Below, in pieces: positions 50,259-61,348 of a stretch of 64,000 nucleotides of DNA. Position 1 is the first letter of the stretch. Every line of letters starts with the position of its first letter. The notes beneath the pieces are model-generated. The model ran no database searches and was not told where the DNA came from. It worked only from the letters and a program-made list of their open reading frames with translations. The DNA is from Clostridia bacterium (lineage in GTDB: Bacteria; Bacillota; Clostridia; TANB77; CAG-465). Where the stretch lies: positions 4,979 to 68,978 of the forward strand of contig JAQUGQ010000003.1 in assembly GCA_028684095.1 (NCBI GenBank), given 5' to 3'. The position numbers and the translations under genes were made by a program.

Positions 50259-50712
50259 TTAAGATATCCTCCCATTTTTTTTAACTACATTAATTACAAT
50301 ATAAATTAACTAACAAGTCTATTATATATTATATATATTTTTTTATCAATGTTTTTCTAATAAATGTTATATTTTTTTAAAATTTAGAGAAGTGAAAAAG
50401 TAAATTTCACTTCTCTAATATCAAACCAGAAGTTACCTTTACAGTAAATTCTGGTTTAAAACAAAAGAAATGTTCAAATTACGAGAAATTTAAATGTATT
50501 AAAAGAGATTGTTCACTTGGTGCTTGTAACAAATGTCCAAGTATTATTAAATGTCATCTAAACAAGTACTTCTACTCTGCTTTAGATGCTTATGAAACTT
50601 TCCTTTTTAAATAATATGTGCAGATATATATTTTTAACACTAAATATTAAATAGGTGGTTTTGCTTGACAAACAACAGTTTTTAATATATAATTATATGA
50701 AAAATAAAGGAT

Positions 50713-51816
50713 GTGTTTAATTTGAAATTAGGAATAGTTGGACTTCCGAATGTAGGTAAAAGTACTCTTTTTAATGCAATAACAAAAGCAGGAGCAGAAA
50801 GTGCTAATTACCCATTTTGTACAATAGAACCAAATATAGGTATTGTTACAGTACCAGATACAAGAGTTGATGTTTTATCAAAAATGTATGATACAGATAA
50901 AACTACATATGCTACAGTTGAATTTGTAGATATTGCAGGTTTAGTAAAAGGAGCTTCTCAAGGTGAAGGTCTTGGTAATAAATTTTTATCTCATATACGT
51001 GAAACTGATGCTATTGTTCATATAGTTAGATGTTTTGAAGATGAAAAAATAATTCATATAGAAGGTAAAATTGATCCGTTAGACGATATAGAAACAATTT
51101 CTCTAGAACTTATATTAAGTGATACTGAAACAGTTAAAACTAGAATTGAAAGATTAGCTAAAGCTTTAAAGACTGGTGATAAAAAGGCATTAGTTGAGAT
51201 GAATTTATTAAATACTATACTATGTACTCTATCTAGTTTAAAACCCGTTAGAAGTATTAATATGACTGATTTAGACAAAGAAATATTAAAAGATACGTTT
51301 TTACTTACAAGTAAACCACTTATATATGTTGCTAATGTTTCTGAAAGCCAACTTCCAAATATAGAAAATGATAAATATGTTAACCTTGTAAAAGAATTTG
51401 CTAAACTAGACAATAGTCAAGTTATTTCACTTTGTGCTAAATTCGAAGAAGATTTATCTGAACTTGATGATGAAGATAGAATTATGCTTATGGAAGAATA
51501 TAGTATAAAAGAAGCTGGACTTGATAAATTAGTAAAAGCTAGTTATTCTTTACTAGGACTTATGTCTTTCCTTACAGCTGGAAAACAAGAAGTTAGAGCT
51601 TGGACTATAAAAAAAGGTACAAAAGCTCCTCAAGCTGCTGGTAAAATTCATACAGACTTCGAACGTGGCTTTATAAAAGCTGAAGTTGTTTCATATGATG
51701 ATTTAATAACTAATACAACAATGATTCGTGCTAAAGAAAAAGGGCTTGTTAGATTAGAAGGAAAAGATTACATTATGCAAGATGGAGACATCGTTCTATT
51801 TAGATTTAATGTGTAA
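50713..51816 (+). CDS. ychF: Ribosome-binding ATPase YchF (Obg family)
   Basis: KLGIVGLPNVGKSTLFNAIT...TIEPNIGIV plus a C-terminal TGS domain. True start is probably the TTG at 50722 (AAGGA RBS), not the GTG at 50713. Confidence 0.9.
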   Translation: MFNLKLGIVGLPNVGKSTLFNAITKAGAESANYPFCTIEPNIGIVTVPDTRVDVLSKMYDTDKTTYATVEFVDIAGLVKGASQGEGLGNKFLSHIRETDAIVHIVRCFEDEKIIHIEGKIDPLDDIETISLELILSDTETVKTRIERLAKALKTGDKKALVEMNLLNTILCTLSSLKPVRSINMTDLDKEILKDTFLLTSKPLIYVANVSESQLPNIENDKYVNLVKEFAKLDNSQVISLCAKFEEDLSELDDEDRIMLMEEYSIKEAGLDKLVKASYSLLGLMSFLTAGKQEVRAWTIKKGTKAPQAAGKIHTDFERGFIKAEVVSYDDLITNTTMIRAKEKGLVRLEGKDYIMQDGDIVLFRFNV

Positions 51817-51842
51817 TTTACATAAGATTTTGAGTTAAAAAT

Positions 51843-51873
51843 GAGTGCAAAAAGAATTTGCACTTTTTTTTCT
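51843..51873 (+). terminator. Rho-independent terminator after ychF
   Basis: GTGCAAA-aagaat-TTGCAC followed by TTTTTTTTCTTTTTTT. Confidence 0.75.
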
Positions 51874-51938
51874 TTTTTTCACAAAAAGTATTGACTTTCA
51901 AGTCAAAATTAGTTATAATATTAATGTCCACAACGTGT

Positions 51939-52015
51939 GGGCCTTTAGCTCAGTTGGTTAGAGCAACCGGCTCATAACCGGTTGGTCCGCGGTTCGAATC
52001 CGTGAAGGCCCACCA
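51939..52015 (+). tRNA. tRNA with CAT anticodon (Ile2-lysidine type or elongator Met; body resembles the Firmicutes tRNA-Ile2)
   Basis: GGGCCTTTAGCTCAGTTGGTTAGAGCAACCGGCTCATAACCGGTTGGTCCGCGGTTCGAATCCGTGAAGGCCCACCA. Confidence 0.8.
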
Positions 52016-58984: not shown

Positions 58985-59398
58985 TTAAAATACCCCCATT
59001 TTTCTTTTGAATAAATACCATAAATTAACTATCAATTCTATTATATATCATATTTATTTTTTGTCAATATTTTTTGTAAAAATTGTAATATTATCCAAAT
59101 TTATAAATTATAATTTCACTTTAATTTACATTTGCTTTTATAAAATTAGATAAATATTTATTCATTAAACCAAGCTAATTTACAAATGACATTATAAAAT
59201 CTGTTTTTCAGTAAATTGTTGAATAAAAAACTTTCAAAACCATTAATAGTATATAAAAATTAAAAGTAAATGCTATATTAATTAATAATATAACAGCTAC
59301 TTCAATTTATCATAGAAAAATTTATGTTTTCTATCCCTGCAGTTATACTCCACTAGCATTCTTAATATTTATATCAAAAATTTCCTATATTGTCAGTA

Positions 59399-60631
59399 CT
59401 ACAATATATACAGCACTACACGGAAAGATACACTTTCGTGAGTGAAAGTACTACTGTTATTGCCACGACAAGCTACTGGACCAGCACTACCACTACTGCC
59501 ATAAACACCTCCACGAATGATATAGTCGTAAGTGCTATATTTTTCATTTGACCATTCCCATGCATTTCCTGCTAAATCATATATATTATTTACTTTCCAA
59601 TATTCACTATATCCTGTTATTTGTAAACCGCCATATCCTGCTACATTTGCAGGATTTACTGAATTACTATGATTTCCCCATGTAGTACTATTTATTACAC
59701 TTATACCTGAATTTTGTATCCATTTCATTGCTGTATCCCACTGCGTTCCAGTTAAGATTCCACTTTTCATTTCTGCTGTATTATACATTAATTCTGCTTT
59801 TTCTTTTGAATTTGTATAATTAATATAATTCCATACTGCCATGTTTTTTTTACTTACTAAAACATTAGATGAATTTCCTGCTTCATATCTGCCTATATAA
59901 AATCCACCATAAGTTGTTATTTGTGATAATTCGCTTGTTACTTCATCTGGTAATTCATCATCTGGTGCGTTTGTATATGGTATATTTGTTGTACACCATT
60001 TTGTATATGTTACATCTGTTTCATTTACTGGTACCCATACAAACTGATTGCCACTTGTATCTTCTATTACTAGTCCTTCATTCCAATCTGTTGGCCATAT
60101 TGCTCCATCATTGATTGCTTTAAATCCTGTTGGAATAATTGGATTGCTATATGTTGCAGCTTGTCCATTTACCGTTGCATTTTCTGTTGCTATTACATTT
60201 ACTCCTAATTCAATAACAACTGGAGGTGTTATTGATCCACTTTCTATTCCTAGATCTACAAGCATATCTATTTCTGTTTGATCTGATCCTACATATACTA
60301 ATTTACTACTTTGTATTTCATATTTTGCTGCATCCACTTCAGACATACTTGTTATATATTCCTTTATTGTTCCAGTTCCATTACCAGTTCCATCCCATAC
60401 TCCTGCATCAAATGTTGCTGAATCAAAAGAATTATCTTGTAAATATTCATTTGCTATAGCCATTGCAAGTTCTGAATTATATTCTGCAACATTTGTTTTA
60501 AACGTTGCTTCATTTGCTGATTCTATTGGATTGTTATTTGCTAGTGATAATATCACCGCACCTGCTAATATTATTATAACTATTATTGTTATAACTAATA
60601 CAATTAATGATATACCTTTATTTTTTTTCAT
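59399..60631 (-). CDS. Pilin-like N-terminal module protein, paralog 3, with intact C-terminal FGE/SUMF1-like (formylglycine-generating-enzyme fold) domain
   Basis: MKKNKGISLIVLVITIIVIIILAGAVILSLANNNPIESANEATFK..., then FGE-like motifs WEWSNEKY...IIRGGVYGSSG...FRVVLY. Confidence 0.65.
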   Translation of the reverse strand: MKKNKGISLIVLVITIIVIIILAGAVILSLANNNPIESANEATFKTNVAEYNSELAMAIANEYLQDNSFDSATFDAGVWDGTGNGTGTIKEYITSMSEVDAAKYEIQSSKLVYVGSDQTEIDMLVDLGIESGSITPPVVIELGVNVIATENATVNGQAATYSNPIIPTGFKAINDGAIWPTDWNEGLVIEDTSGNQFVWVPVNETDVTYTKWCTTNIPYTNAPDDELPDEVTSELSQITTYGGFYIGRYEAGNSSNVLVSKKNMAVWNYINYTNSKEKAELMYNTAEMKSGILTGTQWDTAMKWIQNSGISVINSTTWGNHSNSVNPANVAGYGGLQITGYSEYWKVNNIYDLAGNAWEWSNEKYSTYDYIIRGGVYGSSGSAGPVACRGNNSSTFTHESVSFRVVLYIL

Positions 60632-61254
60632 TAAAATTCCTCCATTTTTCTTTTGAATAACTATGTTAATTATATTATAAATTAACTATCAGGTCAATTG
60701 TATATTATATATATTTTTTTGTCAATGCTTTTCTTATAAATGTTACAATTTTTTGAAATTGTAATATTTATGTAATATTATATCTCATTATCCATATTTA
60801 TAATTTATTACTGTACTTTAATTTATTTCATTTTTATTTGTTTTTATAAAATTAAAATAAATATAGGTTTATGCATTAAGAAGTATATAAAAAAGTATAC
60901 AAATTTACAATGTCAACAACTTGCAAAAAGTATAACATTTAAAAAGAATATTTAAAAAATATTTTTTCTGATACCCTTTTTAACTACATATTCTAAATTT
61001 TATATTATTTCCCCCTACCCAAAACATACTTATCTATATAAAATACTATAGATTGTCCTGGTATTACAATTTTTTTGTTTTTTATCAAATACAACTTTGT
61101 CAGTATTATTTAGTTAAAAAATACAGAATAACTTCTTCATTTGCTGAATATCTTATTTTAGCAGTTATACCTATAGATTCATTTATGTTATTAAATTATA
61201 TACCTTTATTTTTCTATGAATTATTCAAATTTTTATTAAGTTTTTAAAAATATA

Positions 61255-61283
61255 TTGACAAAAAAATATATATAATATACAAT
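61255..61283 (+). promoter_or_regulatory. Sigma-A-type promoter of pilin-like paralog 4 (conserved, in reverse orientation, upstream of paralogs 1-3)
   Basis: TTGACA (61255-61260), 17 nt, then TACAAT (61278-61283). About 65 nt of conserved leader follow, then a GGAGG RBS. Confidence 0.55.
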
Positions 61284-61348
61284 AGACTTGATAGTTAATT
61301 TATAATATAATTAACATAGTTATTCAAAAGAAAAATGGAGGAATTTTA

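Follow-up and report, generated by a model that had tools for sequence, protein, structure and literature searches.

Probable gene conversion of the promoter, leader and N-terminal module in a large family of putative surface proteins from a Clostridia bacterium

We analysed a stretch of 64,000 nucleotides (the window) from a Clostridia bacterium of the TANB77 lineage (GenBank assembly GCA_028684095.1, contig JAQUGQ010000003.1, positions 4,979 to 68,978). The window has a G+C content of 25.7%. It contains four genes, c1 to c4, that share a conserved 5' region. This region covers a promoter, a leader and the first 115 codons, which encode an N-terminal module; we call the remainder of each protein its cargo. 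A blastn search within the window found exactly four copies of the repeated 5' region. The c3 protein is identical to PHD15_03190 of the metagenome-assembled genome (MAG) GCA_028704735.1, and five further loci of that genome were compared with the window. The four genes and their parts are the following.

48585-50258, minus strand: gene c1.
50259..50353, minus strand: c1 promoter TTGATA-N17-TATAAT (50349-50321) and leader with Shine-Dalgarno sequence (motif match, alignment).
49914..50258, minus strand: c1 N-terminal module of 115 codons, with K-G followed by the hydrophobic helix ISLIVLV and a stalk (93% amino acid identity to c3).
48585..49913, minus strand: c1 cargo (PHD15_03130), unrelated to the cargos of c2 to c4, with a short match to Pfam C5-epim_C.
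57884-58984, minus strand: gene c2.
58985..59072, minus strand: c2 promoter TTGACA-N16-TATAAT (59067-59040) and leader with an 11-nt deletion (alignment, promoter scan).
58640..58984, minus strand: c2 N-terminal module with a GTG start (open reading frame, alignment).
57760..58639, minus strand: c2 cargo, FGE-sulfatase/C-type-lectin-like, with a broken frame (sequence comparison).
59399-60631, minus strand: gene c3.
60632..60731, minus strand: c3 promoter TTGACA-N17-TACAAT (60725-60697) and leader (alignment, promoter scan).
60287..60631, minus strand: c3 N-terminal module (alignment; helix 9-65 and then a small beta unit in the AlphaFold2 model).
59399..60286, minus strand: c3 cargo (PHD15_03190), a linker and a predicted FGE-sulfatase/C-type-lectin fold (weak Pfam match, AlphaFold2, Foldseek).
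60740..61240: AT-rich spacer of 501 nt between the head-to-head modules of c3 and c4, with no convincing gene.
60345..61635: inverted repeat formed by c3 and c4, with arms at 60345-60739 and 61241-61635 (395 nt, 93% complementary).
61349-62896, plus strand: gene c4.
61249..61348, plus strand: c4 promoter TTGACA-N17-TACAAT (61255-61283) and leader (alignment, promoter scan).
61349..61693, plus strand: c4 N-terminal module, a mosaic, with ATA at the start position (alignment, ortholog comparison).
61694..62896, plus strand: c4 cargo, a PG_binding_1-like motif followed by an uncharacterised domain (72% identical to the ortholog P0263).

A multiple alignment of c1 to c4 places the common block between about -95 and +345 relative to the start codon. 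The block begins with a few bases and a near-consensus sigma-70-type promoter. A leader of about 60 nt, a GGAGG Shine-Dalgarno sequence and the coding region up to codon 115 (..KLVYVG) follow. Both limits of the block are sharp. Upstream of -96 all similarity ends. DNA identity across nt 1-345 is 85.8-92.5% for all pairs, and ungapped identity across nt 346-500 is 36.8-45.2%. Past codon 115, c1 and c4 are unrelated, and the cargos of c2 and c3 realign with gaps at about 80%. Between -95 and +135, c3 and c4 differ at only four positions (98.3% identity). The final 60 nt upstream of their start codons are 100% identical, and from +159 to +345 the two are 83% identical.

An earlier note on this DNA had described a nearly identical upstream region that continues into the coding region in all four copies. 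Our blastn search and alignment confirm this, as does a count of the 30-mer quoted there (three occurrences at up to three mismatches, with none expected). The pairwise alignment proposed in the note locates the identity breakpoints at about -95 and at codon 115. Two details hold only in part. The upstream identity is found in every copy, but the ATG start is not, because c4 has ATA and c2 has GTG. The leader is also less uniform than described: the Shine-Dalgarno region of c1 differs (GGGAGGATATCTTAA), and c2 is more diverged, with the 11-nt deletion in its leader.

Two of the four genes have unusual reading frames. The start position of c4 (61349-61351) reads ATA, and its syntenic ortholog in a related species has ATG. 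In the NCBI annotation the c4 protein (PHD15_03195) begins at an internal GTG at 61424 and thereby loses its membrane helix. The ATA could be a recent loss or inactivation of the start codon, a rare non-canonical start, an error in the consensus, or an off state open to repair by conversion from c3. In c2 a stop codon at 57884 follows ..WEWTNECYNRS, and the tail ..LRSG..FRVTLYVM carries on in another frame to 57760. The break is a single-base frameshift outside any homopolymer. Hence c2 is probably a pseudogene or contains an assembly indel.

The four genes belong to a much larger family. With the 115-residue module as the query, tblastn finds 22 module copies in the window and the five other loci. 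Adding other PHD15_ proteins raises the total for the genome of this uncultured, spore-forming bacterium to at least 32. The 22 copies fall into two types: 15 are at least 85% identical to c3 in amino acid sequence, and seven are 72-77% identical.

To separate recombination from constraint we can use the syntenic ortholog of c4 (P0263, locus L014), which lies in the related species between the tsaD/M50-peptidase side and pyrG. We compared proportions of synonymous (pS) and nonsynonymous (pN) differences. Between c4 and its ortholog the module (pS 0.44, pN 0.18) and the cargo (pS 0.45, pN 0.17) have diverged equally. Hence the module is not unusually constrained between species. Between c4 and c3, pS is 0.16 for the module, and codons 2-53 have a pS of 0.11 and a pN of 0.01. 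The c4 module is 86-89% identical to those of c1 to c3 at the DNA level and 76% identical to that of its own ortholog. The c4 cargo is 72% identical to the ortholog in amino acid sequence and is unrelated to the cargos of c1 to c3.

The c4 module is also a mosaic. At 65 sites c1, c2 and c3 agree with each other and differ from the ortholog. Here c4 is paralog-like at 51 sites and ortholog-like at 11. The latter form clusters at nt 159-184 and nt 289-311 (runs test p=0.0015), and nt 1-158 are paralog-like. The near-identity of c3 and c4 from -95 to +135 appears to be a recent conversion tract that is still visible in the alignment.

Across the family the signal is similar. For 21 copies the pairwise homoplasy index (PHI) is 0.352, compared to 0.445 +/- 0.014 after permutation, and none of 2,000 permutations gave a value as low. 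Incompatibility affects 40% of the site pairs. Divergence of module and cargo is often discordant. The pairs L8_8699/L8_10001 and L9_8647/L9_11386 have modules with pS values of 0.02 and 0.06 and cargos with pS values of 0.30 and 0.41. The reverse is found as well: L11_8396/L11_13304 has a module pS of 0.27 and a cargo pS of 0.10 (cargo pS is 0.10-0.11 in the reverse-discordant pairs). Overall, module and cargo pS correlate with r=0.25. Copies that lie next to each other often resemble each other most (c3/c4, L8_8699/L8_10001 and L11_8396/L11_10001).

Could the same pattern arise without conversion? A recent burst of duplications, followed by purifying selection on the module, AT codon bias and fast diversification of the cargo, would also produce similar modules and different cargos. 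Such a scenario fits a between-genome codon baseline of 0.69, a hydrophobic helix that is nearly invariant across thousands of homologs, and a cargo pN of 0.2-0.3 among paralogs. It does not fit the ortholog comparison, where the module diverges as fast as the cargo. Nor does it fit c4 itself. Because its ortholog is syntenic, c4 predates the split of the two species, and yet it carries a c3-like 5' tract. Some pairs with close cargos have different module types, PHI is significant, and the non-coding leaders of c3 and c4 are completely identical. The ortholog, mosaic and pS/pN results already largely refute a history without conversion, and we consider it very unlikely.

The gene conversion suggested in the earlier note is therefore supported by the ortholog control, the c4 mosaic, the PHI test and the discordant divergence of module and cargo. 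We propose that the sameness of the 5' DNA is due mainly to repeated non-reciprocal homologous recombination between the copies (concerted evolution), on top of a baseline set by codon bias. We assign this reading a probability of about 0.8. The note had also asked whether the DNA identity exceeds what protein conservation alone would give. It does, but part of it is explained by AT-rich codon bias.

Several observations weigh against recombination as the main cause. In a 30-codon segment of the helix, codons for identical amino acids match in 85% of cases within the genome. They still match in 61-73% of cases (about 69%) when compared with five copies from other genomes. Hence AT-rich codon bias alone creates a high baseline of identity, and part of the signal is trivial. 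The cargo pS reaches a plateau of only 0.30-0.45, so the synonymous contrast is no more than two- to four-fold. In every copy with a promoter the 5' limit of the block coincides exactly with the -35 box, and selection on the promoter fits this limit at least as well as conversion end points do. The promoter core is also kept at the orthologous locus. The ortholog control consists of one orthologous pair. Finally, the MAG is built from short reads, and consensus errors or assembly chimerism among repeats that are 90-97% identical could be the source of some of the mosaicism.

Taken to its limit, this last point becomes an explanation of its own: the similarity would be an artefact of collapsed or chimeric repeat consensus in a short-read metagenome assembly. 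Given a MAG as the source, both the ATA start of c4 and the frameshift in c2 could be errors. However, the copies lie in unique housekeeping context on contigs of 59-226 kb. Their copy-specific substitutions are consistent, and no two copies are identical over more than about 100 nt in a row. Independent JGI, ENA and Logan assemblies show this architecture and the contrast between module and cargo again. A pure artefact is extremely unlikely.

Homogenisation is found in some genomes and not in others. In the related species with the c4 ortholog the modules are only 62-66% identical in amino acid sequence among themselves, and there is no homogenisation. Several other genomes are homogenised; in jgi_38251 the module is 100% identical and the cargo 68%. 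A search of 241 million metagenome records for a 56-nt piece of the module, three of its positions degenerate, gave no exact match. A c4-specific 190-mer, with either ATG or ATA allowed, has no match in a scan of metagenome DNA. Proteins with the N-terminal peptide sequence of the module are present in JGI collections.

In the mechanism that we propose, non-reciprocal exchange between copies would repeatedly overwrite stretches of the promoter, leader and module, preferentially among neighbours. The 5' limit would be set by selection for a working promoter, and the 3' limit by the linker, where homology stops. Uniform modules may be at an advantage, since every copy has to fit a single partner for anchoring in the membrane or for assembly. 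The constant module could also act as portable homology, behind which new cargos can be placed over evolutionary time. We infer RecA-type recombination, an active promoter, exposure of the proteins on the surface with a membrane-embedded N-terminus, and an advantage of uniformity due to a shared partner. A family protein would then consist of a constant front end (strong sigma-A-type promoter, leader, basic peptide, a helix of about 57 residues and a stalk) and an exchangeable outer cargo. Its assignment as a surface protein is a prediction from sequence.

Selection on regulation offers another explanation for the conserved upstream region. All four window copies and most copies elsewhere have their own TTGACA-N16/17-TATAAT promoter; the rest are internal to tandem arrays, where only the first gene has a promoter and later genes keep a ribosome-binding site alone. 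Such arrays are common. The promoters of c2, c3 and c4 are the best-scoring promoter-like sites between 57500 and 63100, although the number of promoter-like sites in this region is not above chance (41 found, 48 expected). Downstream of the -10 box lies an imperfect palindrome, TAGTTAATTT..AAATTA(A/G)C, whose half-sites can also be written TAGTTAATTT..AAATTAAC. In the c3 leader it reads GTTAATT-N8-AATTAAC. It could be an operator.

A shared regulatory element, either this operator palindrome or a leader RNA, might be kept in all copies by selection for co-regulation, with no need for recombination. Of 17 copies with a promoter, drawn from five contigs, most have the palindrome at the same place, and the 5' boundary of the block coincides with the promoter. 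Both observations are expected for a shared element. Yet the palindrome is lacking in some functional-looking copies (c2 and L8_8699). At the orthologous locus in the related species the promoter core is kept, but the leader has diverged and contains an indel. A leader RNA fares no better. An Rfam scan of 48000-64000 (E<=1) returned only tRNAs and chance matches, none of them in the leaders. We rejected a structured leader RNA after RNAalifold, applied to 12 leaders, gave only a 6-bp AU hairpin with no compensatory change at -1.2 kcal/mol; folds of single leaders are weak (-4 to -10 kcal/mol). Furthermore, two unrelated flavours of the Shine-Dalgarno region coexist. A regulatory element is compatible with conversion, and it leaves the mosaics in the coding region unexplained.

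The common cis-regulatory leader that the earlier note had considered thus finds no support in Rfam, in covariation or at the orthologous locus. It is possible, and we regard a shared element that makes recombination unnecessary as unlikely, though not negligible. An operator role of the palindrome is not needed to account for the conserved leader.

Other observations concern the upstream regions themselves. A second promoter-like site overlaps the leader palindrome, TTGACC-N17-TATAAT in c3 (60669-60697) and TAGACT-N17-TATAAT in c4 (61283-61311), and the two promoters may form a tandem. Two flavours exist of the final 30 nt ahead of the start codon. One is TTATTCAAAAGAAAAATGGAGGTATTTTAA, with a strong GGAGG. 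The other is TTATATAGAAAGGAATAGGTTGAATATTAAA, with a purine-rich stretch unusually far from the ATG. In the upstream regions of L008 to L012 (for example L011 8300-8395 and L010 9900-10000) the two flavours are combined with the module types as a mosaic. A further promoter-like match at L009:16800 was rejected as a family member, since it is a generic consensus promoter with a terminator. The region L009 16790-16915, ahead of a beta-propeller gene, has a TTGACA-N17-TATAAT-like promoter and, no more than about 60 nt behind it, a strong hairpin with a T-run. This may be a small RNA or an attenuator.

The copies lie in an ordinary genomic setting. Sporulation and housekeeping genes surround and separate them (murC-like, ychF, tsaD, M50 peptidase, thyX, SpoIIE and comEC, the last at 38085-40517). 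Hence the family is not a mobile island. Three tRNA genes lie between family copies at 51939-52109 and 55038-55108 (Rfam tRNA, 61-73 bits). At the locus of the c4 ortholog (L014 5399-7545, corresponding to 57884-62896 of the window) c2 and c3 are absent, and mnmA-nifU-nifS and a 103-aa gene stand in their place. Thus the lectin-fold pair is a lineage-specific insertion or duplication at this site. The related species also lacks thyX beside pyrG. At L010 15376-16593 a module-only open reading frame (ORF) of 142 aa is followed by a 235-aa ORF (PHD15_04365) that encodes only a lectin-fold cargo. The pair looks like one family member split by mutation, which would be a further case of gene decay in the family.

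The head-to-head arrangement of c3 and c4 raises the question of a switch. The repeats could mediate inversion or reciprocal conversion and so move a working start codon between the two cargos, in a programmed fashion similar to the sap system of Campylobacter fetus or the expression-site systems of Mycoplasma. The inverted repeat with its 501-nt spacer speaks for this. The near-identical tract spans the start codon, the ATG/ATA difference lies inside this tract, and the ortholog has ATG. But c3 and c4 each carry a full promoter, and there is no recombinase gene or short site-specific repeat at the locus. A second recorded contig with these genes has mostly the same neighbouring proteins (their orientation was not compared). 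Unrelated damage elsewhere, namely the c2 frameshift and the split gene at L010, suggests ordinary decay, and the lone G-to-A change may be a consensus error. We consider a programmed switch highly improbable.

More generally, the idea in the earlier note that one expression module serves alternative cargos is not supported. Each cargo has its own promoter and module or is part of a tandem array, and no recombinase is found nearby. We found no promoterless silent cassettes in the window and the other loci; the sole cargo-only ORF is the one at L010, which follows a module-only ORF.

The two systems named above differ from ours in this respect. The sapA homologs of C. fetus, as studied by the Blaser laboratory, reportedly have a conserved 5' region in common, non-coding sequence included, with opposed copies flanking a short segment and exchange that is mainly RecA-dependent. 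A single promoter is said to lie on the invertible segment, the remaining cassettes being silent. The likeness to the window lies in the conserved 5' non-coding and early coding region and in the opposed copies around a short segment. In contrast, c3 and c4 each have a promoter, and the records contain only one arrangement. In Mycoplasma, the Vsp proteins of M. bovis and the Vpma proteins of M. agalactiae have a conserved 5' untranslated region and signal peptide in front of variable surface parts (PMC5634654). These are also multigene families with a constant 5' part and a variable exposed part. However, there Xer1 inversions move a single promoter and the signal peptides are those of lipoproteins, whereas here the copies have their own promoters, no adjacent recombinase and a pilin-like anchor.

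What kind of protein is the module? Its N-terminus reads M-K-K-N-K-G followed by ISLIVLVITIIVIIILAGAVIL in 22 of the 22 copies. All copies thus have a short basic leader peptide; its last residue is Gly, and a hydrophobic stretch of some 20 residues starts right after it. This is the layout of a pilin. Pilins are expected to have Phe (or Met) at position +1 and Glu at position +5 of the mature protein. Here, all copies and nearly all homologs have Ile at +1 and Val at +5; the canonical G followed by ISLVE is found in L003, a distant relative from Butyrivibrio. A profile of 35 modules matches the Geobacter PilA-N geopilin 9egp_A among PDB sequences with E=1.5e-4, spanning the junction of leader and helix, and matches MshA, PilE1 and PilA more weakly. 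No pilin model or other named model in Pfam (including N_methyl, PF07963) or NCBIfam covers the module in c1 to c4, where only sub-threshold matches such as FliL are found. Among 49 relatives there is one match each to N_methyl, GspG and PilA_Myxo.

Type IV pilins have a lollipop fold, a long alpha-1 helix of about 53 residues whose C-terminal half carries a beta-sheet head. AlphaFold2 (confidence score pLDDT ~90) predicts a helix at residues 9-65 (9-32 and 35-65, with a kink at 33-34), two short hairpins and another helix, and a low-confidence linker at 133-138 between module and cargo. A Foldseek search of the PDB with the isolated module returned nothing significant; the best pilin is C. 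difficile PilA1 (E=3.4, TM 0.36). No prepilin peptidase, assembly ATPase or platform genes appear among the scanned ORFs of the window or, judging from precomputed Pfam hits, in about 100 kb of the five other loci. When the module alone was used as the query, an exhaustive search gave 3,583 cluster representatives at E<=0.001, of which 500 are at <=1e-10, and the best 150 matches range from 83 to 902 residues in length. In GTDB representative genomes, which do not include the source MAG, the module found distant relatives only (L001-L007). Glu5 is a defining feature of pilins; we tested for it, and it is absent. The module is therefore not a demonstrated pilin. It is pilin-like in layout and probably in ancestry, and the label itself comes from a weak profile match (E=1.5e-4).

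One can go further and picture the module as an undescribed branch of type IV pilins without Glu5. In uncultured Clostridia it would be a universal handle that displays dozens of lectin-like and enzymatic cargos through one machine for assembly or anchoring. Conversion would keep the handles matched and locally, as in the ATG/ATA difference of c3 and c4, toggle the cargo that can be translated. We find this picture doubtful.

Similar architectures are known among modular type IV pilins, such as PilB of Streptococcus sanguinis, in which a pilin helix carries an adhesive or lectin-like C-terminal module and which are described as widespread (PMC8179133). As in the window, an N-terminal pilin-type helix is fused to a functional C-terminal module. 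Yet our family has neither Glu5 nor Phe1, no match to a pilin hidden Markov model (except in 1 of 49 relatives), no significant pilin match in Foldseek and no pilus machinery in the scanned loci. It also has tens of copies per genome instead of the usual handful of minor pilins. A published 'pilin-like' cluster from TANB77 (PMC11680825) was considered as a possible description of this family and rejected: it is a Tad-type cluster with proteins of 143-236 aa, and no link was established.

The cargos are diverse. Those of c2 and c3 match Pfam PF03781 with 17.6 and 14.1 bits, below the gathering cut-off of 23.3, and in precomputed tables several paralogs and homologs carry PF03781. With an AlphaFold2 model of the c3 cargo (pLDDT 90.7) as the query, Foldseek gives a probability of 1.00 for TaqVP 5vf4 (the best match, E 2e-6), PvdO, FGE, TvpA and EgtB. 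In the model, then, the c2 and c3 cargo is an FGE-sulfatase/C-type-lectin fold. This lectin-fold cargo looks non-catalytic and is the commonest cargo type of the family. The c1 cargo matches PF06662 (C5-epim_C, E 8e-6) over 50 residues only, and neither the c1 nor the c4 cargo has a sequence match in the PDB. The start of the c4 cargo (61694-61900, residues ~135-200) contains the motif DIDTDGYFGPQSQSVLNKF, which resembles the peptidoglycan-binding PG_binding_1. In other bacteria, homologs of the c4 cargo that lack the module sit behind PF01471. There appear to be two alternative ways to hold a c4-type domain at the cell wall, the module or PF01471.

Relatives of the family carry Laminin_G_3, BspA-type leucine-rich-repeat, RCC1 propeller, GH113 and ALK_LTK_GRD cargos. 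Since so many cargo types are found behind the module, cargo shuffling is a property of the whole family. Thus the domain swapping at the 3' boundary of the module that the earlier note had suspected does occur on an evolutionary timescale.

The best structural matches of the c3 cargo, TaqVP (5vf4) and Treponema denticola TvpA (2y3c), are variable proteins of diversity-generating retroelements (DGRs). They share a C-terminal variable stretch with our proteins. In cargos of the c3 type, the stretch that varies most among paralogs lies just before the conserved C-terminal ..FRVVLYIL. We considered DGR targeting of the lectin-fold cargo and rejected it: the window and the genes of the other loci contain no template repeat and no reverse transcriptase domain, and the 3' regions of c2 and c3 are repeated only in one another. 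Unlike a DGR, the family has many germline paralogs and no mutagenic retrohoming. Diversity of the kind that DGRs create somatically seems to be written into this genome in the form of many paralogs.

The closest parallel for concerted evolution comes from outer-membrane proteins. In Helicobacter pylori the gene groups babA/babB/babC, sabA/sabB/hopQ and homA/homB evolve in concert and form chimeric genes through intragenomic recombination (PMC3960876). There, too, end segments are nearly identical, ligand-binding parts are divergent, and copies of the shared segment resemble each other more within one genome than across strains. The same holds for c4, whose module is nearer to its paralogs than to its ortholog and whose cargo follows orthology. 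The H. pylori genes differ in that the concerted segment is at the 3' end (bab, hom), that two or three loci take part and that the products are beta-barrel proteins of the outer membrane. In our case the promoter, leader and 5' module are homogenised in at least 32 copies, and the proteins belong to a Gram-positive envelope.

Concerted evolution of shared 5' regions in families of surface proteins is already well known, and our analysis reveals no new mechanism. Instead, the orthologous control documents conversion that homogenises the promoter, leader and anchor module in a very large family from an uncultured Gram-positive lineage. The module itself is uncharacterised and is fused to lectin-like, leucine-rich-repeat, beta-propeller and glycoside-hydrolase cargos. 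There is also a warning for annotation: pipelines mis-start copies such as c4, and paralog trees built from the 5' end mislead. Given the size of the family and the diversity of its cargos, the module family is probably a major factor in the interaction of these bacteria with substrates or hosts.

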